Part shown: piece by piece, positions 21,199-55,487 of the stretch
Position numbering within the stretch: the stretch's first letter is position 1
How the letters are laid out: every line of letters begins with the position of its first letter
Origin: Bacteroidia bacterium
GTDB lineage: Bacteria > Bacteroidota > Bacteroidia > UKL13-3
DNA length: 64,000 nt
Direction of reading: 5' to 3'
Assembly: GCA_021740845.1 (NCBI GenBank)
Contig: JAIOYZ010000019.1
Span: 8,828-72,827 of the forward strand
Notes under the pieces: model-generated
The model's input: only the letters and a program-made list of their open reading frames with translations
What the model was told of the DNA's origin: nothing
The model's database searches: none
Made by a program: the position numbers and the translations under genes

Positions 21199-22155
21199 AT
21201 GAAAAAAATGTTCCTAAAACTAGGTGCTGCGGCACTTTGCTTAATTGCACTTCAGGCAAAAGCACAAACAACTTCAACTTTTGAAGACTATACTTTATCA
21301 CCAAACAGCTATTATAATGGAGATGATTTTAAGGGTGGATTTAAGAGTGGAGATGCCCTTTTTACAAATATGCATGATTCTACATTTGGGCCTTATTGGG
21401 AAGGATTTTCGGTAAGCAATATGAAGGACGATTCTACATCTGGATATTTGAACCAATACAGTTCAATTACTGGAGGAGGATATCAATCTGAAAACTACGG
21501 AATCTTTTATGCGCAAGGAACGATTAAATTAGAAGGGGCGGCCCTTGGAAAAACCGTAAGTGGATTTTATATCACCAATGGAACGTATGCCTATTTTGAC
21601 ATGAAAGAAGGCAGTACATTTTCTAAGAAATTTGGAGGAAGTACTGGCAACGACCCCGATTATTTGCGAATAGTAATAAGCGCTTGGAAAGACTCTGGAA
21701 ATGCCGCAGATACTAGCATTGATGTTTATTTAGCAGATTATAGAAACAGTGATAATAGCAAAGATTTTATTTTAAAAGATTGGCAGTGGGTAGATTTAAA
21801 ATCATTTGGAGCTGTAGATAGTTTTGGTTTTTATTTTGAATCGAGTGATACAGGTGATTTTGGAATTAATACACCACGCTATTTCTGTATAGATAATTTT
21901 AACGGAACACCAACAGGATTGGTAAAAAACAAGGAAGAAATTAGGTTTACTATTTATCCAAATCCAGCTAAAGATATATTGGAAATTGCTAGTGAAAAAT
22001 CATTTGATAAAGCACGCATTTTTGATTTAAAAGGAAGTGTACTTTTAGAAACCAATACAAACAAATTGGATGTTTCCATTCTACCAAGTGGCATGTATAT
22101 TCTGCGCATAGAAAGCAACTTGGGAGTTAGCCAGAAGAAATTTATTAAAGAATAA
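21199..22155 (+). CDS. Secreted DUF4465-like protein with T9SS type-A C-terminal sorting domain, co-operonic with btuB.
   Basis: Signal peptide. The body resembles the DUF4465 family often found next to riboswitch-controlled btuB in Flavobacteriia/Sphingobacteriia (recalled from memory). C-terminus IYPNPAKDILEIASEKSFDKARIFDLKGSVLLE...LPSGMYILRIESNLG matches the T9SS CTD. Starts 2 nt after btuB. Confidence 0.6.
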   Translation: MKKMFLKLGAAALCLIALQAKAQTTSTFEDYTLSPNSYYNGDDFKGGFKSGDALFTNMHDSTFGPYWEGFSVSNMKDDSTSGYLNQYSSITGGGYQSENYGIFYAQGTIKLEGAALGKTVSGFYITNGTYAYFDMKEGSTFSKKFGGSTGNDPDYLRIVISAWKDSGNAADTSIDVYLADYRNSDNSKDFILKDWQWVDLKSFGAVDSFGFYFESSDTGDFGINTPRYFCIDNFNGTPTGLVKNKEEIRFTIYPNPAKDILEIASEKSFDKARIFDLKGSVLLETNTNKLDVSILPSGMYILRIESNLGVSQKKFIKE

Positions 22156-28868: not shown

Positions 28869-31598
28869 TTACTGCTTAATGAAATTTATATGGGTGTATT
28901 TTGAGTCTGATTTGAGTCTAAAAATATAGGTTCCTGGAAGCAAATTACGGATAGAAATTGAAGTCTTATTTTCAGCAATTCCTTGTTGAACAATTTGTCC
29001 ATTCATTGAAACTATTTCGTAGTTGAAAGTCTTCCCTAAAGGTAAATTTAGCAAGTTAATTTCATCGCTAGCAGGATTGGGAAATAATTTTAATGCATTT
29101 ACTTCTTCTTGGTTCAAACCGGTTTTTGGATTTAAACTTTGAACATATGCTTGGAATACACCTGAGCCATAAGTTGAAACCACCATTCTTCCATCGCTTT
29201 CTCTATGATCCATCATGGTTACCACCTGGGTTCCAATAGTTGTAGCTCCTTGGCGTGTCCAGATTGTTTGCATGCCATCTATCTTTTTGGTAGCATATAA
29301 ACCGGTGCTTGTTCCCACAAAATAAACCATACTATCTAGTGTTGGTGCCAAAGTTAACCACCTGCAGCTTGGTCCATTTCCAATACCAGTTTGACTCTGC
29401 TCCAAATTACCCGAAATAGCCACCCAAGTTTGCCCTGGGTCTGAACTTTCGAAGATGCTTAATATTGTATAATTAGTAAAAACAACGTAGAGTTTACTAG
29501 TATCTTTTGGATCTTGTGTTATGCAATTAATATATCCAGAAGGGAAATTAGAACCTGTAATATTTTCTGGCTGACTAGTTAAATCTGATGCATTTCTTAA
29601 ACGGTATAAACGCCCTTTTGAAGTACCATAAAACAGTACATCATTTTGACCTTTGGAACTGTAAATACTTGTAATTTCATCTCCTGGAGTTGTTAGTTCT
29701 GTATTGTTTAGGCGAGTCCAATTGATGGCACTGGCATTGCTATCCAATTGATTTTTTAGGGGAATTCCAGTGATATCGCTGTTACGCCAAATAACATTTC
29801 CTGCTGGTGTAAACACCACTTTAAAATCATTTGCATCTGGTGTAAATGGATTTATAAACTGGTACAAATCTTTATCAACTCCTTTCGGATCCATACGAGT
29901 AAACTGTGTTGGAATTCCGTTCGCATCAAAAATCATTCTATGCATTCTTCCTTGTTGAATAGAAAGATAAGCTTCATTTCCTCCGGGCTTAATGTGGCAA
30001 AATGCACCATCGTAACTTAAGGGCATGGTCCAGTTGGATGAAGCCAATGCTATAGTAGTTAAGTAGCTTCCATTGTCTTGCAAACCTCCTAAAGTTAGAT
30101 TAGAATTGCTTCCATGGTCTAAAGCTATGGTATAAAATTGCGAGGTAGTATAACCATGGTTTAAGGATTCCCAAACTACCTCATTTGCCATTCCATCTTG
30201 TGTTAAAGAGATGCCTCCATCGTGGAAGGAAATAATTTTGGAACTATTATTTGGATAAAAAATAATACCATGATTATCTGGATGGTGGTTGGGATAGGTT
30301 TTAAAATCGGGTAAGGTAGTTGCAAGTCCGTAGCCTCCAATCTGAGTAGATTTTGTATTGGTTTTGAACCCATCCAAAGAGCGGTATAAATTAGTTCCTC
30401 CGATATATACCACATCAGCATTATCTGGTTTTACATTTACTTCAAGGCAGTAACCTCCCTGTGAAATATAATCGCCAAAAGCGCCACCAAATGAAGGAAG
30501 ATTGCTGCTTCTATCTTCCCAAGTTGCGCCTGCTCCGGTACCATCGCCACTTAAATAGGTATATTTCCAAAAGCTATTGAATTCACTTTTGCCTTCAAAG
30601 GTTTTGCTTTCTTTACCAATACCAGGAGTGTTGGCAATAAAATATACTTGGTTTTCATCGCTTGGCGAAATACCAATTGAGATGCGGTTCCAAGTGGTTT
30701 GAAAACTATCTGGGGTAATGTTTGCCCAAGTTTTTCCATTGTCTGCAGAGCGCCAAATGCCTTGCTGTTGACCACCCCCAGAAAGCGTGGCGTACACAAT
30801 GCCAGTAGTAGTTATAGCTACATCTGTAAAATAACTATAAGCATTTGCTTGCGAACTGCCACCTCTTACTTTTACCCAGGATAAACCGCCATTAATGCTT
30901 CTATATATTCCATCAAAATTGGCGGCATACACTACATCAATGGAATCAATTTTTGGGTTAAGAGCCAGGCGATGAACCACCGACCAAGCACCAGAAATGC
31001 CACCTAATCCAGAAGATACATTGCCTGCTTTTTTCCAAGTATCTCCTCCATCAATGGATTTGTAAACTCCACTTCCATTGTAAAAAGCTCCTGGAATACT
31101 TCCTCCATATAATTCGCCGGTTGAAGCGTACCATGTTTTGTTTTTACTAGCTCTTTTGTCCTGAACCAAACTAGTTATATTGGCAGTTGGAACACTGTCC
31201 ATATTGGTGGCATACCAAGTAATTCCGCCATTTGTACTACGCCAAACACCACCGGTTGCAGCACCTGCTAATAATACATTTTCATCTGTAACATCAATGG
31301 CAACAGCGCGTGTTCTGCCGCCTACATTGTACGGACCAATAGATTGCCAAGTTGCAAATTTTTGTAAGGAATTATCTGATGGAAGTGTTGCAGAAAACTC
31401 CAATTCCATGGCGCGCATGTTATTGGGTATTTTCCCTGTGCTTGGATCAGCCAGCATCTTCTGCATCATTTTTAATCGTGCAGAAAGATTTTGAGTCATG
31501 CCTTCTGCCGAACCTGTTTTTAAAATTGAAAAAGGTTGAAAACAGAAAGCAATACCCACTAAGAGGAGAGCAATGAATGCAGTAAATTTATTAAGCAT
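28869..31598 (-). CDS. Secreted BNR/sortilin-type repeat protein (GH74-like beta-propellers) with T9SS type-A C-terminal domain.
   Basis: Multiple BNR/Asp-box repeats (WRSTNGGITW, YKSIDGGDTW, YRSINGGLSW, WRSADNGKTW). C-terminus LFPNPASDEINLLNLPLGKTFNYEIVSMNGQIV...LLPGTYIFRLKSD is a T9SS CTD. Confidence 0.7.
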   Translation of the reverse strand: MLNKFTAFIALLLVGIAFCFQPFSILKTGSAEGMTQNLSARLKMMQKMLADPSTGKIPNNMRAMELEFSATLPSDNSLQKFATWQSIGPYNVGGRTRAVAIDVTDENVLLAGAATGGVWRSTNGGITWYATNMDSVPTANITSLVQDKRASKNKTWYASTGELYGGSIPGAFYNGSGVYKSIDGGDTWKKAGNVSSGLGGISGAWSVVHRLALNPKIDSIDVVYAANFDGIYRSINGGLSWVKVRGGSSQANAYSYFTDVAITTTGIVYATLSGGGQQQGIWRSADNGKTWANITPDSFQTTWNRISIGISPSDENQVYFIANTPGIGKESKTFEGKSEFNSFWKYTYLSGDGTGAGATWEDRSSNLPSFGGAFGDYISQGGYCLEVNVKPDNADVVYIGGTNLYRSLDGFKTNTKSTQIGGYGLATTLPDFKTYPNHHPDNHGIIFYPNNSSKIISFHDGGISLTQDGMANEVVWESLNHGYTTSQFYTIALDHGSNSNLTLGGLQDNGSYLTTIALASSNWTMPLSYDGAFCHIKPGGNEAYLSIQQGRMHRMIFDANGIPTQFTRMDPKGVDKDLYQFINPFTPDANDFKVVFTPAGNVIWRNSDITGIPLKNQLDSNASAINWTRLNNTELTTPGDEITSIYSSKGQNDVLFYGTSKGRLYRLRNASDLTSQPENITGSNFPSGYINCITQDPKDTSKLYVVFTNYTILSIFESSDPGQTWVAISGNLEQSQTGIGNGPSCRWLTLAPTLDSMVYFVGTSTGLYATKKIDGMQTIWTRQGATTIGTQVVTMMDHRESDGRMVVSTYGSGVFQAYVQSLNPKTGLNQEEVNALKLFPNPASDEINLLNLPLGKTFNYEIVSMNGQIVQQGIAENKTSISIRNLLPGTYIFRLKSDSKYTHINFIKQ

Positions 31599-36392: not shown

Positions 36393-38336
36393 TTGAAAAA
36401 TTTTAGTGATTTAGGCGTAGAGCAGTCCCTCTTGAATGCGATTCAAGAACTGGGTTTTGAGAACCCAACGCCTATACAGGAGCAGACAATCCCTGTATTT
36501 TTAGAAACCGGACGCGACATTTTAGGATTAGCCCAGACGGGCACCGGTAAAACAGCAGCATTTGGCCTGCCTATTTTGCAGTTGCTTGACCCTTCTGCCA
36601 AGCATATCCAATCTTTGATTATTTGTCCTACTCGCGAACTTTGCATGCAAATTTCTCGCGATCTTGCTAGTTATAGCAAACACAAGCCAGGTATTAACAC
36701 CGTAGCAGTTTATGGTGGTGCTAGTATTGAGCGCCAAATCAGTGACATTAGACGTGGAGCACATATTATTGTTGCAACTCCAGGCCGTTTAATGGATTTA
36801 ATGAAACGTAAAGCCATCAACATTAACCAAGTTAATTTTGTGGTTTTAGATGAAGCAGATGAAATGTTGAACATGGGCTTTGAAGAGGATGTAGAATACA
36901 TTCTTGGTCATACCCCAGAAACAAAACGCGTTTGTTTATTTAGTGCTACCATGCCTAAAGCCATTCGTAACATTGCCAACAGGTATATGAACGATGCAGT
37001 TGAAATTAGTGTAGGTAAATCTAACTCGGGTAATGTTAACATTACTCACCAATATTCTGTGGTACATGCCAGAGATAAATATGCAGCCTTAAAACGTTAT
37101 GTTGATTTTAACTCAGATAACTTGTATTGCATTATCTTTTGTACTACTAAAAATGAAACTCAAGATATCAGCGATAAGTTGATTAAAGACGGTTACAATG
37201 CCGATTGTTTGCACGGAGATTTAAGTCAGGCACAACGCGAAAAGGTAATGAACCGTTTTCGTCACCATGCCATTAAAATTCTTTTGGCAACAGACGTAGC
37301 AGCAAGAGGAATTGATGTGAGTGGATTAACTCATGTTATCCATTTCCATTTACCAGATGATATTGAAAATTACACACACCGTAGCGGAAGAACCGGACGT
37401 GCAGGTAAATTAGGGGTTTCCTTTACTTTACTTCATATGCGTGAAGGTGGAAGATTGAAAGATATTGAGCGTATTAGTAATATCAAATTTGAAAAAGTTT
37501 TGATACCAAGTGCGCAAGATGTTCGCGATAAAAAATTAGTTGCCTTTACCGATACCATTATCAATACTGAGATTGAAGAAAGCATTTTCGACACTCAAGT
37601 AATGGGAAGCTTAACTAGCTTAATGGAATTAGAAAAGGAAGAGTTATTGAAGAAATTCTTATCTCTTGAGTTGCGCAGATTCTCTGTAGATTTTGCCAAC
37701 GAACCAGACTTAAATTCATCTGCTGGAGCTAGCGACCGTGGAGCCAGAGATGGCGGTGGAAGAGCTGCAAGAGGAACTAGAATTTTTGTTAGCTTAGGTA
37801 AGAAAGACGGATTTGATATTCGTAGTTTCAAAGACTGGGTTGCAGAAGCATCTAATGTTTCTTGGAAAGATTTACATGTTGATGTAAGTGGTGTTTACAG
37901 TTTTGTAGATGCTAAAGACGAAAATGTGGCAAGTATTGTTGCTTCTTTAAATGGAACTACTTACAAAGATCGCCCAGTGCGCGCTGAAGTTAGTGGCGAC
38001 AAGAGAAGTGGTGGCGGTTCATTTGGCGGTGGAGAAAGAAGAAGCAGAGGCGGTTCTTTTGAAGGCGGCGGTGATAGAAGAAGAAGCGGCGGATCTTACG
38101 AAGGTGGCGGCGATAGAAGAAGTAGTGGTTCTTATGAAGGTGGTGGCGATAGAAGAAGAAGTAGCAGTTCTTCAGACGATAGACCACCACGTACATTTGG
38201 CGGCGGAGAAGGTAGAAGTAGAGACACAGCTAGAAGATCTGAAGGCAGCAGCTTTGGCGGCGACAGAAGAAGAAGCGAAAACAGAGGAGAAGGTAGTCGC
38301 GGTGGCGAAAGAAGACCAAGACGTAGAATGGATTAA
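36393..38336 (+). CDS. DEAD-box ATP-dependent RNA helicase (DeaD/CsdA-like) with DbpA-type RNA-binding domain and Arg/Gly-rich repetitive tail.
   Basis: Q-motif, Walker A AQTGTGKT, DEAD (VLDEADEM), SAT and HRSGRTGRAG motifs. The C-terminal ~120 aa consist of GGDRRRSGGSYEGGGDRR-type repeats. Confidence 0.9.
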   Translation: MKNFSDLGVEQSLLNAIQELGFENPTPIQEQTIPVFLETGRDILGLAQTGTGKTAAFGLPILQLLDPSAKHIQSLIICPTRELCMQISRDLASYSKHKPGINTVAVYGGASIERQISDIRRGAHIIVATPGRLMDLMKRKAININQVNFVVLDEADEMLNMGFEEDVEYILGHTPETKRVCLFSATMPKAIRNIANRYMNDAVEISVGKSNSGNVNITHQYSVVHARDKYAALKRYVDFNSDNLYCIIFCTTKNETQDISDKLIKDGYNADCLHGDLSQAQREKVMNRFRHHAIKILLATDVAARGIDVSGLTHVIHFHLPDDIENYTHRSGRTGRAGKLGVSFTLLHMREGGRLKDIERISNIKFEKVLIPSAQDVRDKKLVAFTDTIINTEIEESIFDTQVMGSLTSLMELEKEELLKKFLSLELRRFSVDFANEPDLNSSAGASDRGARDGGGRAARGTRIFVSLGKKDGFDIRSFKDWVAEASNVSWKDLHVDVSGVYSFVDAKDENVASIVASLNGTTYKDRPVRAEVSGDKRSGGGSFGGGERRSRGGSFEGGGDRRRSGGSYEGGGDRRSSGSYEGGGDRRRSSSSSDDRPPRTFGGGEGRSRDTARRSEGSSFGGDRRRSENRGEGSRGGERRPRRRMD

Positions 38337-40393: not shown

Positions 40394-41914
40394 CTATTTT
40401 ATAGCAGCTCTAAATTCAGGAGAATTTAGAAACCAGAAATACCATTTTACGATTGTCCCATCAGGGCGTTTACATTTAACTAGAACAGGTACTAACTTGG
40501 CTTTCTCTTCCTTAAATTTTTGTCGATTCTGATAGTTTTCATCATATCTCTCTAAGGAATGAATGCTGCTATTTTCTTTGTTCAACATATAAAATTGAGC
40601 GCCCTCATCGGTTAAAAAATGTGCTTGAAAATTTTTATTAACACCTTTCAGAAAACCAATAAAACCGTAGCCGCCAATAAAATTAAATGAAGGTGGAAAT
40701 TGGCTTTCCAGCCTATAAACTTCTATCAATTTCTTTTTATAACAAACTTTATATTGGATTTCACCTTTCCTATTTTCTCTTATACCTAACTGCTTTAGTT
40801 GTTTTTCATTTAAAAGCAATGCCTTTGATAAATCAGTTTGAAAAATAACAGAATCCATCTTCAAATTCTCTTTGCGCAATAGTTTATTTTTAATTAGCCT
40901 TTTGATTAATTCATTGTAATTTTCATCTGTGTAATTAGCATAATTTTGCCTCACCCAATTAGCCTTATTTATAGGCAATAAATCACAAAATTTTTGAGTT
41001 GGTTTGAACCAAAAAACCATGTCATAATCTGTTCTACCATACATATTAGCTTTTGCCTTAAGCTCAACGCGGACGGGAACTAGCAGCTTTTTGGCTTCGG
41101 TCACAAAATCTTGTGCCACCATTAATGGTGCCTTTAACTCTAGTATATCTGTGGTAACATCTCCTACATTTTGTGAAGTGCTTTTCTTCTCTAAAAAGGT
41201 AATTTCTTTTTCTATAAACATTGGATAAGCCAAAAGGAAAGAATCAGACAAAATTGCCATCATTGAATCGCTAGCCAAAACACTGTTGTTTAAAGTGTAA
41301 CTACCACCATATGATTGAATTTCAGTAAAGTAAAATATTCTATTCTGGCGTTTGCGCAAAACACCTTTATTGGTATACAAACTATCACTCAAATTAGTAT
41401 ACCTCAACTCGCAACCATCGGAATAAATATGCAAGGCTGCCAGCTCCTGGTAGCTTAAAATCAACTCATCAGAATTTTCTTTGGGCGTATAACTTGGGTA
41501 AATAAGAGGCCAAGGTTCTTCTGGATAACCAGGTTTTGGTTCAAACCGAATTCTATTTTGCATTTTTGGCAAAGGAATGAGTGGCTTGGGTAGGGAAGAA
41601 ACTAATGAAATGGATTCTTCAATAACAGAATCTGTTGGATTATTTATTGAAGGTTTTTGCTCTTCTTTTTGCTCAATAGTAGGGCTTTGTTCATCCTTAT
41701 CACGACTTTGAAAATAGGATAAGAAAAACAGTCCAAACAACAAAAATGAAGCTATGATAAGGTACCAATTTCTCGCTCCAAATTTCTTATTAAGTATGGG
41801 TTCGGCTTGAACCAAATCTCTAATTTCTTCTATTGAAATTGCAGGAGAATCCAATTTGGCTTCTTGAAAAAGCTCATCCAAAAAACTATCGCTTAGTTGA
41901 TTCTTATTTTCCAT
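40394..41914 (-). CDS. Putative membrane-anchored anti-sigma factor (cognate to the ECF sigma at 41917..42423), with a large extracytoplasmic domain.
   Basis: It starts 2 nt after the sigma stop. A short cytoplasmic N-terminus is followed by one TM helix (WYLIIASFLLFGLFFLSYF) and a ~430-aa extracytoplasmic part. It is homologous to the extracytoplasmic part of 43359..44831. Confidence 0.55.
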   Translation of the reverse strand: MENKNQLSDSFLDELFQEAKLDSPAISIEEIRDLVQAEPILNKKFGARNWYLIIASFLLFGLFFLSYFQSRDKDEQSPTIEQKEEQKPSINNPTDSVIEESISLVSSLPKPLIPLPKMQNRIRFEPKPGYPEEPWPLIYPSYTPKENSDELILSYQELAALHIYSDGCELRYTNLSDSLYTNKGVLRKRQNRIFYFTEIQSYGGSYTLNNSVLASDSMMAILSDSFLLAYPMFIEKEITFLEKKSTSQNVGDVTTDILELKAPLMVAQDFVTEAKKLLVPVRVELKAKANMYGRTDYDMVFWFKPTQKFCDLLPINKANWVRQNYANYTDENYNELIKRLIKNKLLRKENLKMDSVIFQTDLSKALLLNEKQLKQLGIRENRKGEIQYKVCYKKKLIEVYRLESQFPPSFNFIGGYGFIGFLKGVNKNFQAHFLTDEGAQFYMLNKENSSIHSLERYDENYQNRQKFKEEKAKLVPVLVKCKRPDGTIVKWYFWFLNSPEFRAAIK

Positions 41915-41916
41915 AA

Positions 41917-42423
41917 TTAAGCCTTTTTCATTTTAGTTAATTGATGATTTTCCTTTTCTGCAAAGGACTTCAAATACTGCCTTGTTTGATATAAACTTGC
42001 TTTTACTTTCTGCTCTGATTCACCCGTTATGGCAGCAATTTCTTTATAAGAAAATCCAGCTATTTCAAACAATACCAATCTATTTCTATCCTCTGGATTT
42101 AGTAAATTTAAGATTCTTGTTAGCTCATATTTCCAAACTTTTCCTTCTGCAGATTCATTGGAATAATTGGTATCAAACAAGGAGGCAGAAGACCGCTTGT
42201 CTTCTTTTAATTTCTTAAGAAATAGGTTACGAGCAATTCCAAAAAGGTAATAAATAAACTTCTCCGAATCAATTATTGTTTCAAACTTCTCAAAGGCAAT
42301 AAGTGTGGTTTCTGAAATAATATCGCGAGCCTCTTCCCTATTATGAACAAGAGCCTGCACATAATTGCATAAGCGTTTATGAGCAGGTTCGTATAATTTC
42401 ATAAATTTCTCCTTAGAAGGCAT
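41917..42423 (-). CDS. RNA polymerase sigma-70 factor, ECF subfamily.
   Basis: 168 aa. Region 2 (ISETTLIAFEKFE...YYLFGIARNLFL) and region 4 HTH (LVLFEIAGFSYKEIAAITGESEQKVKASLYQTRQYLK). Confidence 0.85.
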   Translation of the reverse strand: MPSKEKFMKLYEPAHKRLCNYVQALVHNREEARDIISETTLIAFEKFETIIDSEKFIYYLFGIARNLFLKKLKEDKRSSASLFDTNYSNESAEGKVWKYELTRILNLLNPEDRNRLVLFEIAGFSYKEIAAITGESEQKVKASLYQTRQYLKSFAEKENHQLTKMKKA

Positions 42424-42534
42424 TGGCTAAATTGAAGTGTTTATTGGGTAAGTACATTTTAAGGGCAAAAAGTTATTTTAATTTGTAACAAAATTATAAT
42501 GCTTTGATTGGCAGCTATATTTTTTTAAAAATAC

Positions 42535-43356
42535 TTGATCAAACCTTTCACAAGAATACGCCAATCCTTACCTTGCCAAACATTTTTTATGCTTCAAAAA
42601 ACAATCATTGGTGGTTTACTTGGGTTGGCAATACTCCTATTTCTTTTATGGAAATTTGATATTGCTTTCAGCGCTCAAACACCCCAAAGTTTCTTAACGC
42701 ATTTTACCTTTTTTCTTACTCAATCGGCAGGACCAATTGGTACTTTATTAGGAATTTTATTAGCTTGCTTTTTGTATACAGTTAACGAAATTGGGATCAA
42801 AAATAAATTGCTTGTTTTTGGTAAGGCAATGCTTGGCTTGATAGTAATCATAAGTGTTTTTGCAGCCATAAATGAAAAATTAACCAAGCCTATTTTTAAA
42901 TTCCAACGCCCTAGTCATGTTTATATGTTGCAGCAAATAAACGCCATAGGCAGCCTTGACTCTTTGTATAATTTGAGCAAGGAAGAACGCATTGCCTTTT
43001 TTGAAAATGAAGTAAAAAACCAAGCAGTTTTATTTTCATCTATTGATTCAGATGTATTGCATCATTGGATTGCAGAAGGAGGTTATTCTTTTCCAAGCGG
43101 ACATACTTTTAACGCTTTTCTTTTGGCCATGATTTTTTCGTTTGGGATAGGCAATAATTCGTATGCGCCCAAACTTCAAAAACTTTTTTTTCTACCATTT
43201 TTATGGGCCATGGGAATTGGCCTTTCACGTGTAGCATTGGGAGTTCATAGTTGGATAGATGTAAGCGCTGGAGCAGCCATGGGAATAGTGGTTGGCAGCA
43301 CTTTGTTGTATATGGATTACACAAGGAATTTGATTACCCACAAAAAGCAAAACTAA
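42535..43356 (+). CDS. PAP2-family membrane phosphatase (phosphatidic acid phosphatase type 2 / haloperoxidase fold).
   Basis: PAP2 motifs KxxxxxxRP (KFQRPSHV), PSGH (FPSGHTFNAF) and SRxxxxxHxxxD (SRVALGVHSWIDV). Multi-TM. The start could be the internal MLQKTIIGG. Confidence 0.75.
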   Translation: MIKPFTRIRQSLPCQTFFMLQKTIIGGLLGLAILLFLLWKFDIAFSAQTPQSFLTHFTFFLTQSAGPIGTLLGILLACFLYTVNEIGIKNKLLVFGKAMLGLIVIISVFAAINEKLTKPIFKFQRPSHVYMLQQINAIGSLDSLYNLSKEERIAFFENEVKNQAVLFSSIDSDVLHHWIAEGGYSFPSGHTFNAFLLAMIFSFGIGNNSYAPKLQKLFFLPFLWAMGIGLSRVALGVHSWIDVSAGAAMGIVVGSTLLYMDYTRNLITHKKQN

Positions 43357-43358
43357 AT

Positions 43359-44831
43359 TTAGCGGCGTACAATGCGTTTTGAAATTACATCACCTTTATC
43401 CGATTCAATTACTAGAACATAAACGCCCGGCAATAAATCGCCAATATTGGTTTCAAACTTATGCTTACCTGTCTCGAAGGGTTTTGAAGGCAGTGCTTTT
43501 CTAAGTAAGGTGCCGTTAATTGAATAAATATTAGCCTCAAGGATACGTGCATCGGATAAGTTAAACTCAACAGTAAGTTCGGCATCGGTGGGGTTTGGAA
43601 AGGCGGAAAAATAATTGATGGCACCAGGAGCATTTTGACAAGCTTCAAAATAGGTACATGTTTTTGCATCGCTTTTCTTGGTAACAAAAACCGATTGGTA
43701 TTCTTTGCGCAAATCAGATGAAATTCTTTTGGGTAGAGCATTAAATAATTCTTCGCTTGGTTCAAACCAAATGATAATATCTGCTCGATAACTTTGTGTA
43801 TCTCCCGGAATATTTACATCACCAGATCGAACTAGAATTGGAATGAAAGACGGGATTTTTTCTGCCAGTTTTCTTTCATCTTCCTTTCTTTCATTTTCAG
43901 GTTTTAATGGACTTAAATTATTGTCGATTCGGTATTGTAATTCCTCTTTAGAATATTCATTATCCAGCTCAAACAATCTCCACTTTTGCCCGAGATCATC
44001 TGTAACAAGTCGGTATTTTGGAATTTTCATTACAATACTAGAATTAGCATTGGAATCTGAAGTGTTAGTTGCTTTTAATTTAGGAGGATTCAATGTGTTT
44101 CCTCTTATAAAAACTGAGGAATTAGAATTCAATTTATTAGATGAATTACCAAAACTACTTTTCAGATTTTTACTTCCAAAATTATTAAATCCAGTAGGCC
44201 TAAAATTCATATTAAATTCAGCGGTACTACCCGCTTTATCAAAATAAATAAAGGATGCTTTTGTATCACATATTGGCAATTTTATTTGTAGGTCTTTTAT
44301 AATAATTCCAAAAGCCAGCAATTCTTCATCCGATAATTCTATAATTTTTATGCAATTAAGATTAATTAATCGTCTCTGGGTTATTGAATCTATTTGTTCT
44401 AAAGATGGAGCTTTTTCAATTGAATTTGAAGAATCAAATATTGTCACTAATTTAGGTTCAAAGGAAAAAATTGGAGCTGCACTTTTCCTGTTTACTTTTG
44501 TTTTTCTAATCTCTCCTTTTGGTTCTATTGAAGTTTCCTTTTCTGCTTGAACTTCACTTTCGGTGTTTTGGGGAACAATTCTCTGTTCTGATTTGGTTAA
44601 TAAATCGGAATTCAATTCTGAAACAGGTTTGTTAAAATACAGAACAAGTAGTGTTGAAAATACAGCGATTATACTCATGGCTATTATTATTTTAGTGTTA
44701 AAATAAATCTTAAATTTAGGTGTACGATTTCCAATCAATTCAATTTTTTGTTCCAATAATTCTAAGTCCATTTCGGGCCTTGCATTTCTTGCGGCATCAA
44801 ATAATTTGTTCACCTTTTCATCTGCATTCAT
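43359..44831 (-). CDS. Putative anti-sigma factor paralog carrying a T9SS type-A C-terminal sorting domain.
   Basis: It overlaps the upstream ECF sigma gene by 4 nt (ATGA). N-terminal cytoplasmic segment plus TM helix (IIIAMSIIAVFSTLLVLYF). The middle region is homologous to 40394..41914 (IIIWFEPSEELFNALP vs MVFWFKPTQKFCDLLP). C-terminus FPNPTDAELTVEFNLSDARILEANIYSINGTLL...LLPGVYVLVIESDKG is a T9SS CTD. Confidence 0.55.
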   Translation of the reverse strand: MNADEKVNKLFDAARNARPEMDLELLEQKIELIGNRTPKFKIYFNTKIIIAMSIIAVFSTLLVLYFNKPVSELNSDLLTKSEQRIVPQNTESEVQAEKETSIEPKGEIRKTKVNRKSAAPIFSFEPKLVTIFDSSNSIEKAPSLEQIDSITQRRLINLNCIKIIELSDEELLAFGIIIKDLQIKLPICDTKASFIYFDKAGSTAEFNMNFRPTGFNNFGSKNLKSSFGNSSNKLNSNSSVFIRGNTLNPPKLKATNTSDSNANSSIVMKIPKYRLVTDDLGQKWRLFELDNEYSKEELQYRIDNNLSPLKPENERKEDERKLAEKIPSFIPILVRSGDVNIPGDTQSYRADIIIWFEPSEELFNALPKRISSDLRKEYQSVFVTKKSDAKTCTYFEACQNAPGAINYFSAFPNPTDAELTVEFNLSDARILEANIYSINGTLLRKALPSKPFETGKHKFETNIGDLLPGVYVLVIESDKGDVISKRIVRR

Positions 44832-45379
44832 TTCAAACCTCCCTCATTAATTGTTTGGTTCAAACCGAATTTTTTAAGCCTTGCATTTTCTAATTCCACT
44901 AAATCTTTTAACCTCTGCCTTGCTTGATAAATATCTGTTTTCACCTTACTTAAACTTACCTTTTGTATTTGGGCAATTTCCTCATATTTAAATCCAGCCA
45001 CCTCAAACAAGGTAATTGCTTCTTGTTGCTGAGGCTTTAATTTTCCTAACAAATTAGCTAACTCTCTTCTCTGTAAACTGTCTTCGGAAGTTTCACCTCC
45101 ATCCAAATCTTCCATTTTCTCCCTATTCCAAGGCGCATGAAATTTTTGCCTTCTTACTTTTTTCAGATACAGATTTCTAGCAATGGCAAATAAGAAATAG
45201 GCAAATTGCTCAGGTTGCCTTAGCGTTTCAAATCTCTCAAATGCCTCTAATGTAACTTCACTCACCAGGTCTTTTGCATCCTCCGATTGCCAAATCAACG
45301 ACTGCACATACCTGCTCAACCGCGCATGCAATGGTCGGTATAAGGTCATAAAGCGTATGTTTTTTTCGGTTTGATCCAA
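44828..45379 (-). CDS. RNA polymerase sigma-70 factor, ECF subfamily (second copy).
   Basis: 183 aa. Region 2 and region 4 HTH (ITLFEVAGFKYEEIAQIQKVSLSKVKTDIYQARQRLK). It is a paralog of 41917..42423. Confidence 0.85.
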   Translation of the reverse strand: MDQTEKNIRFMTLYRPLHARLSRYVQSLIWQSEDAKDLVSEVTLEAFERFETLRQPEQFAYFLFAIARNLYLKKVRRQKFHAPWNREKMEDLDGGETSEDSLQRRELANLLGKLKPQQQEAITLFEVAGFKYEEIAQIQKVSLSKVKTDIYQARQRLKDLVELENARLKKFGLNQTINEGGLK

Positions 45380-45533
45380 CAGAATTAAATTAGAATTCGT
45401 ACAACAGTAAGTTCCATGAGTTGATTCAAAAGTTAGGAAACAATTTTAAATTTTACCTAAGCAACTCATTTTCTGTGGAATTAAATCAATTCAACTTCAT
45501 ACAAATCAAATTTGTCTTTCATTTTAACCTAAA

Positions 45534-46710: not shown

Positions 46711-47103
46711 ATGAAAAAAATTATCTCCGCTCTCTTGTTAATTGGATTCTTAACACAAGCCAATGCAGCAGAAAAAAACCAAAGCGATCATAAAGGTGAG
46801 CAAAAGAAAGCAGCTGTTTACCATATTGAGCAAGCAAGCATGCAAAGCACTCTTAAATACGATGGCGACGCTATATTGCTATTTGGCATTTGCTCTTACA
46901 ATACCTTACCCGTTAAGGTTCAATTAATTTCTGGGAACACCTCCTTAATGACGGCCAATTACAATACACAAAGTATTAATGATGGCTTTAACTTACGTCA
47001 AATTCCTGCAGGCACTTATACTTTAAGAATTACACATGGAAGTGAAATAATAGAAAAGCAATTTGTAAAAACAACAGAATCTGCTCCTATATTTGAATAC
47101 TAG
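46711..47103 (+). CDS. Small secreted hypothetical protein.
   Basis: 130 aa with signal peptide MKKIISALLLIGFLTQANA. No recognisable family. Lies directly upstream of the LytS-type kinase. Confidence 0.4.
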   Translation: MKKIISALLLIGFLTQANAAEKNQSDHKGEQKKAAVYHIEQASMQSTLKYDGDAILLFGICSYNTLPVKVQLISGNTSLMTANYNTQSINDGFNLRQIPAGTYTLRITHGSEIIEKQFVKTTESAPIFEY

Positions 47104-48153
47104 ATGAAAGAACTATTGAGAGAAAAAACTAAAACACAACCTGGGTTTTTGCTATATGTAATATCCTTGTTTTTTTATGTGTTGCTCTCAGAACTGGTTT
47201 ATAGCTTATTGGGTTTTCAATTTTTATTAGAAAATTTTTTAAGCAACTTATATGAATCTGCCCTATTTCTAGGCATTGCCTTTTGGGTAAATGCGTTTAT
47301 GGAAAATACGTTCAATCAAAAATTCCCTTGGAATAACAATCCAATTTACCGGTTTTCGGTTCAATCATTGGTTCTGAGTTTTTTGGTAAACATACTTATT
47401 ACCATTTCGTTCGTCGGGTTTAAATACATCCATTTTGCTTATTATAATGCTGGCATTTTTGTTTCTTTTCAATTGGTTTTTATTCAGTTTTGTTTGTATG
47501 CAATTGTAATAGAACTCAATGTGGTGGCCAATTTTGCCGAGTATTTATTGAACCAATGGCACCAAAGCAAATTGCAGCAAGAAACTTTTGATAAAGAAAA
47601 AGCCCAATTCAATTTGGAGCTATTGCGCAATCAAATCAATCCTCATTTTTTGTTCAATAACCTCAATACACTTTCTTCACTCATTCACGAAAACCAAGAC
47701 CAAGCTTCTGATTTTCTTCGCATGTTATCGCGGGTTTACCGAAACATTTTGGAATATAGAAACAAAGAAACCGTGAGTTTGAAAGAAGAGTTAGATTTCT
47801 TTGAAAATTACTACCAATTGCTAAGTATACGTTTTAAAGAAATGCTTTTGGTTCAAAAAGAAATTAACCCCAACTTGATGCAGAAGAAAATGATTCCTTT
47901 AACACTGCAAATGCTTATTGAAAATGCAATAAAACACAATGTAGTTTCTAGGAGCCAGCCCTTGGTTATTACCATTAAAACGGAAGGCAATTTCTTGTTG
48001 GTTAGCAATCCCATCCAGAAAAAAGAATCGCTGGAATACTCGAGTGGATTGGGATTAAAAATAATAAATAGCAGGTATTCATTTTTGGGCGATACTTCAA
48101 TTGAAATTATTTCAAACCCTCAACAGTTTACCGTAAAAATACCTCTACTATGA
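47104..48153 (+). CDS. Sensor histidine kinase, LytS/YehU-type (His_kinase PF06580 family), membrane-bound.
   Basis: Five or six N-terminal TM helices, then the NPHFLFNNLNTLSSLI signature and an ATP-binding GLGLKIINSRY G-box. Confidence 0.8.
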   Translation: MKELLREKTKTQPGFLLYVISLFFYVLLSELVYSLLGFQFLLENFLSNLYESALFLGIAFWVNAFMENTFNQKFPWNNNPIYRFSVQSLVLSFLVNILITISFVGFKYIHFAYYNAGIFVSFQLVFIQFCLYAIVIELNVVANFAEYLLNQWHQSKLQQETFDKEKAQFNLELLRNQINPHFLFNNLNTLSSLIHENQDQASDFLRMLSRVYRNILEYRNKETVSLKEELDFFENYYQLLSIRFKEMLLVQKEINPNLMQKKMIPLTLQMLIENAIKHNVVSRSQPLVITIKTEGNFLLVSNPIQKKESLEYSSGLGLKIINSRYSFLGDTSIEIISNPQQFTVKIPLL

Positions 48154-54266: not shown

Positions 54267-55487
54267 ATGATTAAAAAAATACTCTTTCTCGCTTGCTTTA
54301 GTTTTGCATTTAATTTTGCCTTTGCGCAACGTTATTTAAGTCAGGTTTTTGATTCTGTATATGTTGCTGCCGATATTTTATATGGCTTTAACTATAATTA
54401 CAAAGGCGATAGCACCAACTTATATTTAGATATTTACCAACCCAAAGGCGATACGGCTAAAAATAGACCTGTAGTAATTTTAGCGCATGGAGGTTCTTTT
54501 GTGCAAGGCAGCAGAAAGGCCCAAGATATCACCGAAGTTTGCACCCGTTTGGCAAAAATGGGCTATGTAACTGTATCTTTTCAATACCGTTTGGGAGTAG
54601 ATATTTTAAGCGGCAAAACCTTAGAACAAGAATTTAGTCAGGCCGTTTGGCGCGGCACTCAAGATGGCAGAGCAGCAGTACGTTTTATTAGAAAGCAAAT
54701 TGAAAACGGAAATCCTTATAACTTAAATACCAACCAAGTTTATTCTGGTGGCATTTCTGCCGGCGGTGTTTTGGGCCTGCATTTGGCCTTTCTAGACGTG
54801 CCCAGCGAATTATCTCAATTGGCAATTGATACCAATGAAATTGGCGGCATTGAAGGCGAAAGTGGCAATGCGGGTTATAGTTGGAAGGTGAATGGCGTAG
54901 TGAGTTTATGCGGTGCTTTGGCAAATGTAAGTTGGCTCAACAATAATAAAGACATTAGCATTTGCAATATGCACGGAACCATCGATGCAACCGTTCCTTA
55001 TAAAACTGCTTACTTTAAATTCTTTGGTGCAGATGTAGCCATTTTGCAAGGCAGCTTTAGCGTTGATTCGGCAGCCATGCAACAAGGCATAGACACCCGT
55101 TTGCATACTTTTGAAGGTGCCGACCATGTTCCATTTTCTGGCACTACTTCCACACAAATGCAATACATGGATACTACCATTGAGTATGTTGCCCGCTATT
55201 TATACAAACACGTTACAGGTATAGTTCCTAGCGGTTTGAACCAAACGCTTGCTGAAATAAGTTTTCAGGTATTTCCAAATCCTGCACAAGATAAAATCAC
55301 AGTTCAATTTCAAGATTCTAAAACACGCAGCATTGGTATATTTAACATGAGTGGACAAGAAGTAATTTTGGTTCAAACCGAAAAAGAAAAAGAACTAATT
55401 ACCATAGACAGCTTGCCGAAAGGAATGTATTTTATGGAAGTACGCGAAGCAGAAACTGTTTCTAGAAAACTAATTTTAGTAGATTAA
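54267..55487 (+). CDS. Secreted alpha/beta-hydrolase (esterase/lipase) with T9SS type-A C-terminal sorting domain.
   Basis: Signal peptide. HGG oxyanion motif (ILAHGGSFVQGS) and nucleophile elbow GGISAGG. C-terminus VFPNPAQDKITVQFQDSKTRSIGIFNMSGQEVI...LPKGMYFMEV is a T9SS CTD. Confidence 0.75.
   Translation: MIKKILFLACFSFAFNFAFAQRYLSQVFDSVYVAADILYGFNYNYKGDSTNLYLDIYQPKGDTAKNRPVVILAHGGSFVQGSRKAQDITEVCTRLAKMGYVTVSFQYRLGVDILSGKTLEQEFSQAVWRGTQDGRAAVRFIRKQIENGNPYNLNTNQVYSGGISAGGVLGLHLAFLDVPSELSQLAIDTNEIGGIEGESGNAGYSWKVNGVVSLCGALANVSWLNNNKDISICNMHGTIDATVPYKTAYFKFFGADVAILQGSFSVDSAAMQQGIDTRLHTFEGADHVPFSGTTSTQMQYMDTTIEYVARYLYKHVTGIVPSGLNQTLAEISFQVFPNPAQDKITVQFQDSKTRSIGIFNMSGQEVILVQTEKEKELITIDSLPKGMYFMEVREAETVSRKLILVD

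Follow-up and report, generated by a model that had tools for sequence, protein, structure and literature searches.

Can an anti-sigma factor that is anchored in the inner membrane also be addressed to the T9SS (type IX secretion system)? This question is raised by a 64,000-nucleotide stretch of a Bacteroidia bacterium genome (GCA_021740845.1, contig JAIOYZ010000019.1, positions 8,828 to 72,827; hereafter the window), which carries two genes for extracytoplasmic function (ECF) sigma factors, each directly followed by a gene for a putative membrane-anchored partner. One of these partners (partner 2) ends in a T9SS type-A C-terminal domain (CTD), and the other (partner 1) does not. Our reading, to which we give a probability of roughly 0.55, is that the two genes of each operon specify an ECF sigma factor and a single-pass anti-sigma factor cognate to it, and that the outer part of the CTD-bearing one is addressed to the T9SS. 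A preliminary description of the locus had named five open reading frames, all of which are present at their given positions, and had proposed translationally coupled sigma and partner genes. This coupling is evident in the overlap of the sigma-2 stop with the partner-2 start (4 nucleotides (nt), ATGA) and in the 2-nt gap between the sigma-1 stop and the partner-1 start. The two operons had been described as back to back; both are on the minus strand and they are thus arranged in tandem. The CTD-bearing operon comprises the following elements (amino acids, aa):

45407-45434, minus strand: ECF-type promoter-like motif TAACTTTT-N12-GGAACTTAC upstream of sigma-2 (strict pattern match)
44828-45379, minus strand: ECF sigma factor 2, 183 aa, putative cognate of the CTD-bearing partner (Sigma70_r2, 3.7e-9; Sigma70_r4_2, 8.5e-14; TIGR02937 over cut-off)
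44697-44831, minus strand: cytoplasmic N-terminal segment (N-segment) of partner 2, aa 1-45, proposed to bind sigma (family motif, AlphaFold2 (AF2) helices, hhalign)
44634-44696, minus strand: predicted single transmembrane helix of partner 2, aa 46-66 (Kyte-Doolittle (KD) hydropathy, AF2)
44373-44633, minus strand: predicted disordered linker of partner 2, aa 67-153 (predicted local distance difference test (pLDDT) <50)
43620-44372, minus strand: extracytoplasmic alpha/beta module of partner 2, aa 154-404 (AF2; uncharacterised)
43638-43658, minus strand: Cx5C motif of partner 2, aa 392-398 (invariant residues)
43359-43619, minus strand: T9SS type-A CTD of partner 2, aa 405-490, plus stop codon (PF18962, TIGR04183, AF2, Foldseek)

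Both sigma proteins matched Sigma70_r2 (PF04542) and Sigma70_r4_2 (PF08281) above the Pfam cut-offs, as well as the ECF superfamily model TIGR02937 (55 and 64 bits; cut-off 42.9), and both consist of sigma regions 2 and 4 only, which places them among the ECF (group 4) factors. Their best NCBIfam model, NF058625 (PG0214/GFO_1088), scored 68-74 bits, under its cut-off of 130, and the two proteins share 45% identity (E 4e-46). Across related genomes, an ECF sigma gene of the same subfamily was located directly upstream of the partner gene in all 22 loci with an intact 5' side (22/22), the two genes either overlapping by 4 or 11 nt or lying 1-12 nt apart. In most loci the start codon of the partner overlapped the sigma stop. 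The adjacency extended to the most remote members sampled (profile E ~1e-14), and the genes surrounding the sigma/partner pairs varied by locus and were otherwise unrelated.

The CTD of partner 2 (aa 411-488) scored above the cut-offs of both PF18962 (38.7 bits; cut-off 27; E 1.3e-9) and TIGR04183 (32.7 bits; cut-off 23; E 5.2e-8), and with these two models its restriction to the product of 43359-44831, as opposed to that of 40394-41914, was as the preliminary description had it. In the full-length AF2 model, built from a 13-sequence family alignment, aa 405-490 formed a confident beta-sandwich (pLDDT 82-92). Among the Foldseek matches of this model were the CTDs of mirolase (8qb1) and of RemA, the latter in complex with the SprA translocon (8gl6_D). 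The CTD signature residues (PNP, G, G-Y and a basic C-terminus) were invariant in the family. Three further CTD-bearing cargo genes are encoded in the window (54267-55487, plus strand; 28869-31598, minus strand; 21199-22155, plus strand), and the organism therefore uses a T9SS.

We further investigated the occurrence of the CTD among relatives of partner 2. A word-indexed search with the sequence stripped of its CTD returned 13 close relatives, and PF18962 was found in all of them. A HMMER profile, likewise without the CTD, retrieved 497 representatives of clusters at 50% identity with E <= 1e-3, of which 220 reached E <= 1e-10. The CTD hidden Markov model (HMM) matched 153 of the 162 proteins collected; the nine exceptions were the six members of a CTD-less paralog family, to which partner 1 belongs, and three others that are possibly fragments. 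This supports the view, based on sequence conservation, that the CTD is a conserved and selected feature of the partner. Family proteins ranged from 400 to 1185 aa and carried 1-5 module copies, and their public names were limited to 'T9SS type A sorting domain-containing protein' or 'hypothetical'. No domain other than the CTD was detected in 10 remote members searched with Pfam or in eight members searched with NCBIfam. The 15 genome loci were all from Bacteroidota metagenome-assembled genomes (MAGs), including Bacteroidia, a Chitinophaga, Bacteroidales and Salinivirgaceae.

One syntenic ortholog (P0003; locus L001, 6001-7434) had an aberrant CTD end, …VLELPICRTH…IPRNYY in place of …VLVIESDKGDVISKRIVRR, and its gene overlapped the next called gene by ~125 nt. 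The CTD may be decaying here, or the sequence may contain a frameshift or an assembly error.

The opposite end of the protein resembles neither a signal peptide nor the N-terminus of known cargo in the window. As previously noted, each partner has one N-proximal transmembrane segment, a single strongly hydrophobic stretch of 19 aa (aa 48-66 in partner 2 and aa 50-68 in partner 1). In partner 2 this was the only strong apolar segment (KD peak 2.62), and it coincided with the transmembrane helix of the AF2 model (aa 46-66). An apolar run starting at aa 35-70 was present in 152 of the 162 proteins; in these 152, its median length was 19 aa (10-90%: 17-21) and the net charge was +3.1 in the 12 residues ahead of it versus ~0 after it. 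As positive charge precedes the run, the N-terminus is predicted to be cytoplasmic by the positive-inside rule. A proline followed within three residues in 60% of the family proteins. The apolar segment of partner 2 is followed by NKP, has no AxA site and is preceded by a conserved segment of 45 aa. In comparison, the three CTD cargo proteins in the window served as controls and begin with signal peptides of the classical kind, in which a hydrophobic core (aa 5-20) leads to AFA/Q or AKA/Q. The preliminary description had held that a cleavable Sec signal peptide would make partner 2 ordinary T9SS cargo; what precedes the extracytoplasmic part is instead an apolar run near aa 48 with a positive-inside bias. 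Judged by these heuristics, the membrane segment behaves as an anchor. Together with the sigma adjacency, the anchor features support a type-II membrane-anchored, anti-sigma-like protein rather than ordinary cargo.

One apparent exception and one alternative start were examined and rejected. The family protein P0135 seemed to have a signal-peptide-like start, but its start codon had been miscalled, as the N-segment MKPLHEYFSAARSREPLMNEERVDALL is in frame just upstream, directly past the sigma stop. An internal start of partner 2 at Met52, which would turn the transmembrane helix into a signal peptide, was ruled out by the conservation of the upstream 45 aa as protein, and further by the overlap of the partner start with the sigma stop in most loci.

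Ahead of the anchor, AF2 placed two short helices (aa 3-15 and 23-33) in the N-segment, which carries the motif LFxxARxxxPxxxxxE throughout the family. Beyond it, pLDDT fell below 50 over aa 68-153, a region that is presumably disordered according to the model. Across the family, the distance from the anchor to the first module had a median of 104 aa (10-90%: 73-205), and this stretch was rich in S, K, N, E, T and P. The full-length model contained folded segments at aa 154-208 and 268-400. Its Foldseek list was dominated by generic immunoglobulin (Ig)-like matches, and the module was hence modelled separately. Alone, aa 154-404 formed one compact alpha/beta domain (pLDDT 82.6; predicted template modelling score 0.80; 34-sequence alignment), for which Foldseek returned no significant PDB match (best E 0.21) and neither Pfam nor NCBIfam has a model. 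Between the module and the CTD lies C-x-Y-F-E-x-C, with C392, Y394, F395, E396 and C398 invariant; in the family as a whole, nothing is conserved better than this Cx5C motif, and 116 of 133 proteins carry it just ahead of the CTD. It may serve as a disulfide, as a redox site or in processing.

A conserved motif, (T)AACTTTT-N12-GGAACTTAC, was identified 40-60 nt upstream of the sigma genes. The strict pattern had a single match in the window (45407-45434, minus strand), with 0.01 expected by chance. It preceded the sigma genes in most related loci, and no other site occurred within those loci. ECF promoters have an AAC core and a second element ~16 nt further on. Since the ECF-like motif was found only ahead of sigma genes in these loci, it fits a sigma/anti-sigma operon under positive autoregulation, and we regard it as a candidate ECF promoter. 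A regulon search with the motif returned only the sigma-2 promoter in the window, and allowing three mismatches added two sites, which is within chance expectation. Scanning metagenomes with a 19-base consensus gave only four unrelated contigs (phage-like or NuoE-like), and a scan for sigma-70 and terminator consensus sequences was uninformative.

The second operon and the gene between the two are laid out as follows:

42535-43356, plus strand: PAP2-family phosphatase, PgpB-like, a neighbour rather than part of the core (PF01569)
42448-42474, minus strand: promoter-like motif variant AACTTTT-N12-GTACTTAC upstream of sigma-1
41917-42423, minus strand: ECF sigma factor 1, 168 aa, paralog of sigma-2 (Sigma70_r2, Sigma70_r4_2)
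40394-41914, minus strand: partner 1, 506 aa, without Cx5C and CTD (N-segment aa 1-49, predicted transmembrane helix aa 50-68, two module copies)

No known domain was found in partner 1, and its family comprised only six proteins, none of which has a CTD. The preliminary description had the two partners share a homologous extracytoplasmic region. This was marginal in a pairwise comparison (BLASTP, 25% identity over 51 aa, E 0.002) and held at the profile level, where a module HMM trained without the paralog family matched aa 278-332 of partner 1 (E 1.8e-10) and gave a weak second match to aa 473-504. The N-segments of the two partners are also homologous (hhalign probability 92.9%, E 3.6e-7). 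From these similarities, the sigma gene and the N-segment of its partner were duplicated as a unit, which is the pattern expected for a cognate pair. A longer, CTD-bearing relative, P0020 (845 aa), connects the two forms: aa 151-505 of partner 1 were colinear with its aa 151-500 (E 2e-44), and its aa 517-845 correspond to aa 148-490 of partner 2. On these alignments, the long form would consist of two paralog-like modules, a third module, Cx5C and the CTD. As each window partner aligns with a part of P0020, the two look like different reductions of the long form, partner 1 being the apparently derived version in which the last module and the CTD were lost. Partner 1 presumably senses in the periplasm.

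The anatomy, its conservation, the sigma adjacency and the promoter motif are established; the mechanism built on them, from sigma binding and topology to proteolysis, dependence on the T9SS and signal direction, is our inference. In the anti-sigma, the leading ~45 residues with the two short helices would be cytoplasmic and would hold sigma at the inner membrane. Past this segment, the chain would run through one transmembrane helix, a disordered tether of ~100 residues and one or more alpha/beta modules. Because it ends in Cx5C and a type-A sorting domain, the outer part would be addressed to the outer-membrane T9SS translocon. The trigger could come from the T9SS, when it engages or exports the C-terminal part, or from a surface signal sensed by exported modules. 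Either would lead to cleavage of the tether, after which the stub would undergo intramembrane proteolysis and free the sigma factor. Freed sigma would then transcribe its own operon from TAACTTTT-N12-GGAACTTAC, together with a further regulon. In effect, this would be a trans-envelope signalling device made of one polypeptide, which reaches the outer membrane via the T9SS.

Several points weigh against this reading of a T9SS-addressed anti-sigma factor. Anchor and signal peptide were distinguished by heuristics. Known anti-sigma domains (zf-HC2/ZAS, RskA, RseA_N, FecR, DUF4179) were detected in neither partner by Pfam or NCBIfam (E <= 1), and the N-segment profile retrieved nothing relevant from PDB sequences. 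Besides the operon itself, no regulon members were found in the window or the related loci. All members of the family are from uncultured MAGs or metagenomes. The existence of a CTD-less paralog means that the CTD is dispensable in at least one version of the system. Export of an inner-membrane-anchored chain via SprA is topologically awkward, and a 2023 review ascribes a cleavable signal peptide to all T9SS effectors (PMC10202324).

Three mechanisms are candidates for a T9SS-addressed anti-sigma factor, namely proteolysis set off by export, as in a FlgM-like checkpoint, a static receptor across the envelope, and docking of the CTD on the T9SS in the periplasm. The first two are favoured because the up to five modules and the type-A CTD suggest surface display. 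By our own estimate, a tether of ~100 aa could reach across the periplasm only if mostly extended. The more specific proposal that the anti-sigma is a T9SS-coupled checkpoint or trans-envelope sensor, a T9SS substrate still tethered to the inner membrane, is tentative, and we give it somewhat less than an even chance. In the checkpoint version, the T9SS would pull the CTD-bearing modules through SprA and so open the tether to site-1 and site-2 proteolysis; one sigma factor would be freed per export event, and transcription would read T9SS flux directly. In the sensor version, the exported modules would form a surface receptor that is physically wired to the cytoplasm. Cx5C, at the junction of module and CTD, might add a redox or processing switch, and the PAP2 neighbour might connect the system with lipid remodelling in the envelope, recalling the reported T9SS dependence of LpxE activity in Porphyromonas gingivalis. 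If true, the protein would be without precedent in two respects, as a T9SS substrate that lacks a cleavable signal peptide and as an anti-sigma factor under the control of a Bacteroidota secretion system.

The nearest known relatives of such a design are the Dma anti-sigma factors of Bacteroidota, which span both membranes; in Dma1, a disordered region makes this span possible (PMC10927553). To bind its ECF sigma, Dma1 needs no more than its N-terminal 40 aa, and the T9SS goes unmentioned in that work (PMC10927553). The CTD-bearing family shares with Dma its restriction to Bacteroidota, the adjacency to an ECF sigma gene (here in 22/22 loci), a short cytoplasmic N-segment that is, by description, ~40 aa long (with sigma binding known for Dma1 and proposed here), an inner-membrane helix followed by a long, disordered periplasmic region (here AF2 aa 46-66 and pLDDT <50 over aa 68-153), a C-terminal part destined for the outer membrane and a proposed model of proteolytic release. 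However, the C-terminal part of Dma proteins is an OMP_b-brl_2 barrel of eight strands that sits in the outer membrane, whereas the family described here has a novel alpha/beta module (1-5 copies), Cx5C and a type-A CTD, and would be exported rather than inserted. No OMP_b-brl_2 barrel was found by Pfam in partner 2 or the 10 remote members, and AF2 gave a module and a CTD sandwich. As the defining barrel is replaced by modules and a T9SS CTD, the CTD-bearing family is not a member of Dma, although by analogy it plausibly works like one.

A signalling role for a T9SS CTD has a precedent in P. gingivalis, where PorA, through its CTD, contacts PorY in the periplasm and switches on PorXY-SigP, also when PorA is artificially tethered to the inner membrane (PMC7712824, PMC12152298). 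In both cases, a T9SS CTD would be the signalling element that ultimately controls an ECF sigma factor. In contrast to partner 2, PorA is soluble cargo of small size, has a normal signal peptide and acts through the two-component system PorY/PorX, and the two proteins have no sequence relationship besides the CTD. SigP has no adjacent anti-sigma, whereas here the CTD and a putative sigma-sequestering segment are on one polypeptide. The system is also similar to FecA-FecR-FecI, in which a single-pass anti-sigma talks through its periplasmic C-terminus to an outer-membrane machine and proteolysis frees the ECF sigma factor; the FecR/DUF4974 domain and the adjoining TonB-dependent transducer are absent here, and the T9SS would be the partner instead. 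FlgM, the anti-sigma of sigma-28, is soluble and cytoplasmic and is exported in its entirety by the flagellar type III secretion system. The likeness is that removal of an anti-sigma by a secretion machine reports that the machine works, but here only the extracytoplasmic part is exportable and release would need proteolysis. Finally, whilst partner 2 shares the C-terminal TIGR04183/PF18962 domain and its typical fold with canonical type-A cargo, it differs in that, by the heuristics above, a conserved cytoplasmic segment of 45 aa and a 19-aa anchor replace the cleavable signal peptide, and in its obligatory upstream sigma gene.

The PorA precedent also bears on the best-surviving alternative, which we consider rather unlikely: the protein is an anti-sigma factor, but its CTD stays in the periplasm, where it docks on a T9SS component (PorV, the periplasmic face of SprA, or PorM/N) or competes with the CTDs of cargo. 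It would then report T9SS occupancy or cargo load without crossing the outer membrane. PorA signals from the periplasm even when tethered to the inner membrane and not surface-exposed (PMC12152298), and FecR-type anti-sigmas likewise contact an outer-membrane protein from the periplasm (PMC10927553); docking also avoids the topological problem of a tethered exported protein. Sequence does not separate docking from export. However, up to five modules and a ~100-aa tether exceed what docking needs, and type-A CTDs are normally cleaved, with anionic lipopolysaccharide (A-LPS) put in place after export.

It is improbable, in our judgement, that the partner is ordinary T9SS cargo and the main target of the upstream sigma factor, its long N-terminus being an extended signal peptide cleaved after Sec export and its CTD having a normal export role with no regulatory meaning. 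The canonical CTD, the 1-5 repeated modules typical of surface proteins, the lack of an anti-sigma domain detected with Pfam, NCBIfam or PDB profiles and the signal peptides given to all effectors in the review (PMC10202324) would all be in keeping with cargo. Extended signal peptides would not account for a 45-aa N-segment that is conserved at the protein level over ~500 clusters and between paralog families, or for the retention of the N-segment and the transmembrane helix in the CTD-less paralog. In addition, the 19-aa run lies ~45 aa from the start, is followed by Pro and has no AxA, unlike the three cargo proteins in the window, and the sigma adjacency in 22/22 contexts, mostly with start/stop overlap, is a signature of sigma/anti-sigma pairs. 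That the CTD-like domain is a mere Ig-like beta-sandwich, a structural or sensor part of a conventional periplasmic anti-sigma in which the T9SS is uninvolved, is very improbable, for although Por_Secre_tail is a small beta-sandwich, its scores are moderate (33-47 bits) and the paralog functions without it, the domain passed both curated cut-offs in every member tested, is always strictly C-terminal with the CTD signature residues kept, and occurs in a family confined to Bacteroidota, in a window that encodes other T9SS cargo.

A T9SS-addressed anti-sigma factor would have consequences beyond this locus. To our knowledge, sensing of T9SS activity is known only for P. gingivalis (PorA/PorXY/SigP). 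If true, our reading would connect the T9SS or the cell surface with transcription by a second and far more direct route, would place another class of anti-sigma factors that span the envelope beside Dma, and would supply a natural tethered substrate with which to probe cargo handling by SprA/PorV. The analysis also defines an uncharacterised extracytoplasmic domain that has neither a PDB neighbour nor a Pfam/NCBIfam model, along with the candidate ECF promoter. Full-text literature searches found no description of an anti-sigma factor bearing a T9SS CTD. The preliminary description, whose author was not aware of any such module, nevertheless overstated the case, as Dma and PorA-CTD signalling are close precedents.

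The PAP2 gene was correctly placed by the preliminary description between the two operons on the opposite strand (42535-43356, plus strand; E 2e-19). Its product is a PAP2 family member by PF01569 (70.1 bits; cut-off 27.2), and it scored 66.9 bits (E 1.8e-18) with NF007975 PgpB, under the equivalog cut-off of 261. A PAP2 gene adjoins the sigma/partner operon only in the window (42535-43356) and in loci L001 (8665-9477), L005 (5522-6283) and L006 (6538-7311). Across these four loci PAP2 was well conserved (E 1e-91 to 1e-104), in comparison to partner proteins that were only 36-43% identical. PAP2 and the CTD gene are convergent, and their stop codons are separated by 2 bp in the window (43356-43359) and by 3 bp in L005 (5518-5522). 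The 2-bp spacing leaves no room for a terminator, and transcripts of the sigma operon would therefore run antisense into PAP2, which could provide antisense regulation of this gene. PAP2 was rejected as a regulon member or core component, because it is adjacent in only four related loci and no motif occurs on its strand; it does not belong to the conserved module, and no promoter of the sigma type faces it. In P. gingivalis, the activity of the lipid A 1-phosphatase LpxE needs a functional T9SS (PMC12704123). By this analogy, a functional link between PAP2 and the system is possible and is offered as a lead only.

Other CTD-bearing cargo genes flank several family loci, and one locus is flanked by a hybrid histidine kinase/response regulator (such neighbours lie at L004, 7622-9427; L021, 2382-4232 and 10425-12779; L024, 1-3223). 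Neither kind of neighbour is conserved between loci. Elsewhere in the window, a DEAD-box RNA helicase (36393-38336, plus strand) has a C-terminal tail of ~130 aa made of degenerate GGDRR/SYEGGGDRR repeats (RGG-like low complexity). A gene for a small secreted protein of 130 aa, with a signal peptide ending in ANA (46711-47103, plus strand), translationally abuts a gene for a multi-pass LytS/YehU-type histidine kinase-like protein (47104-48153, plus strand), and the two may form an accessory sensor pair.

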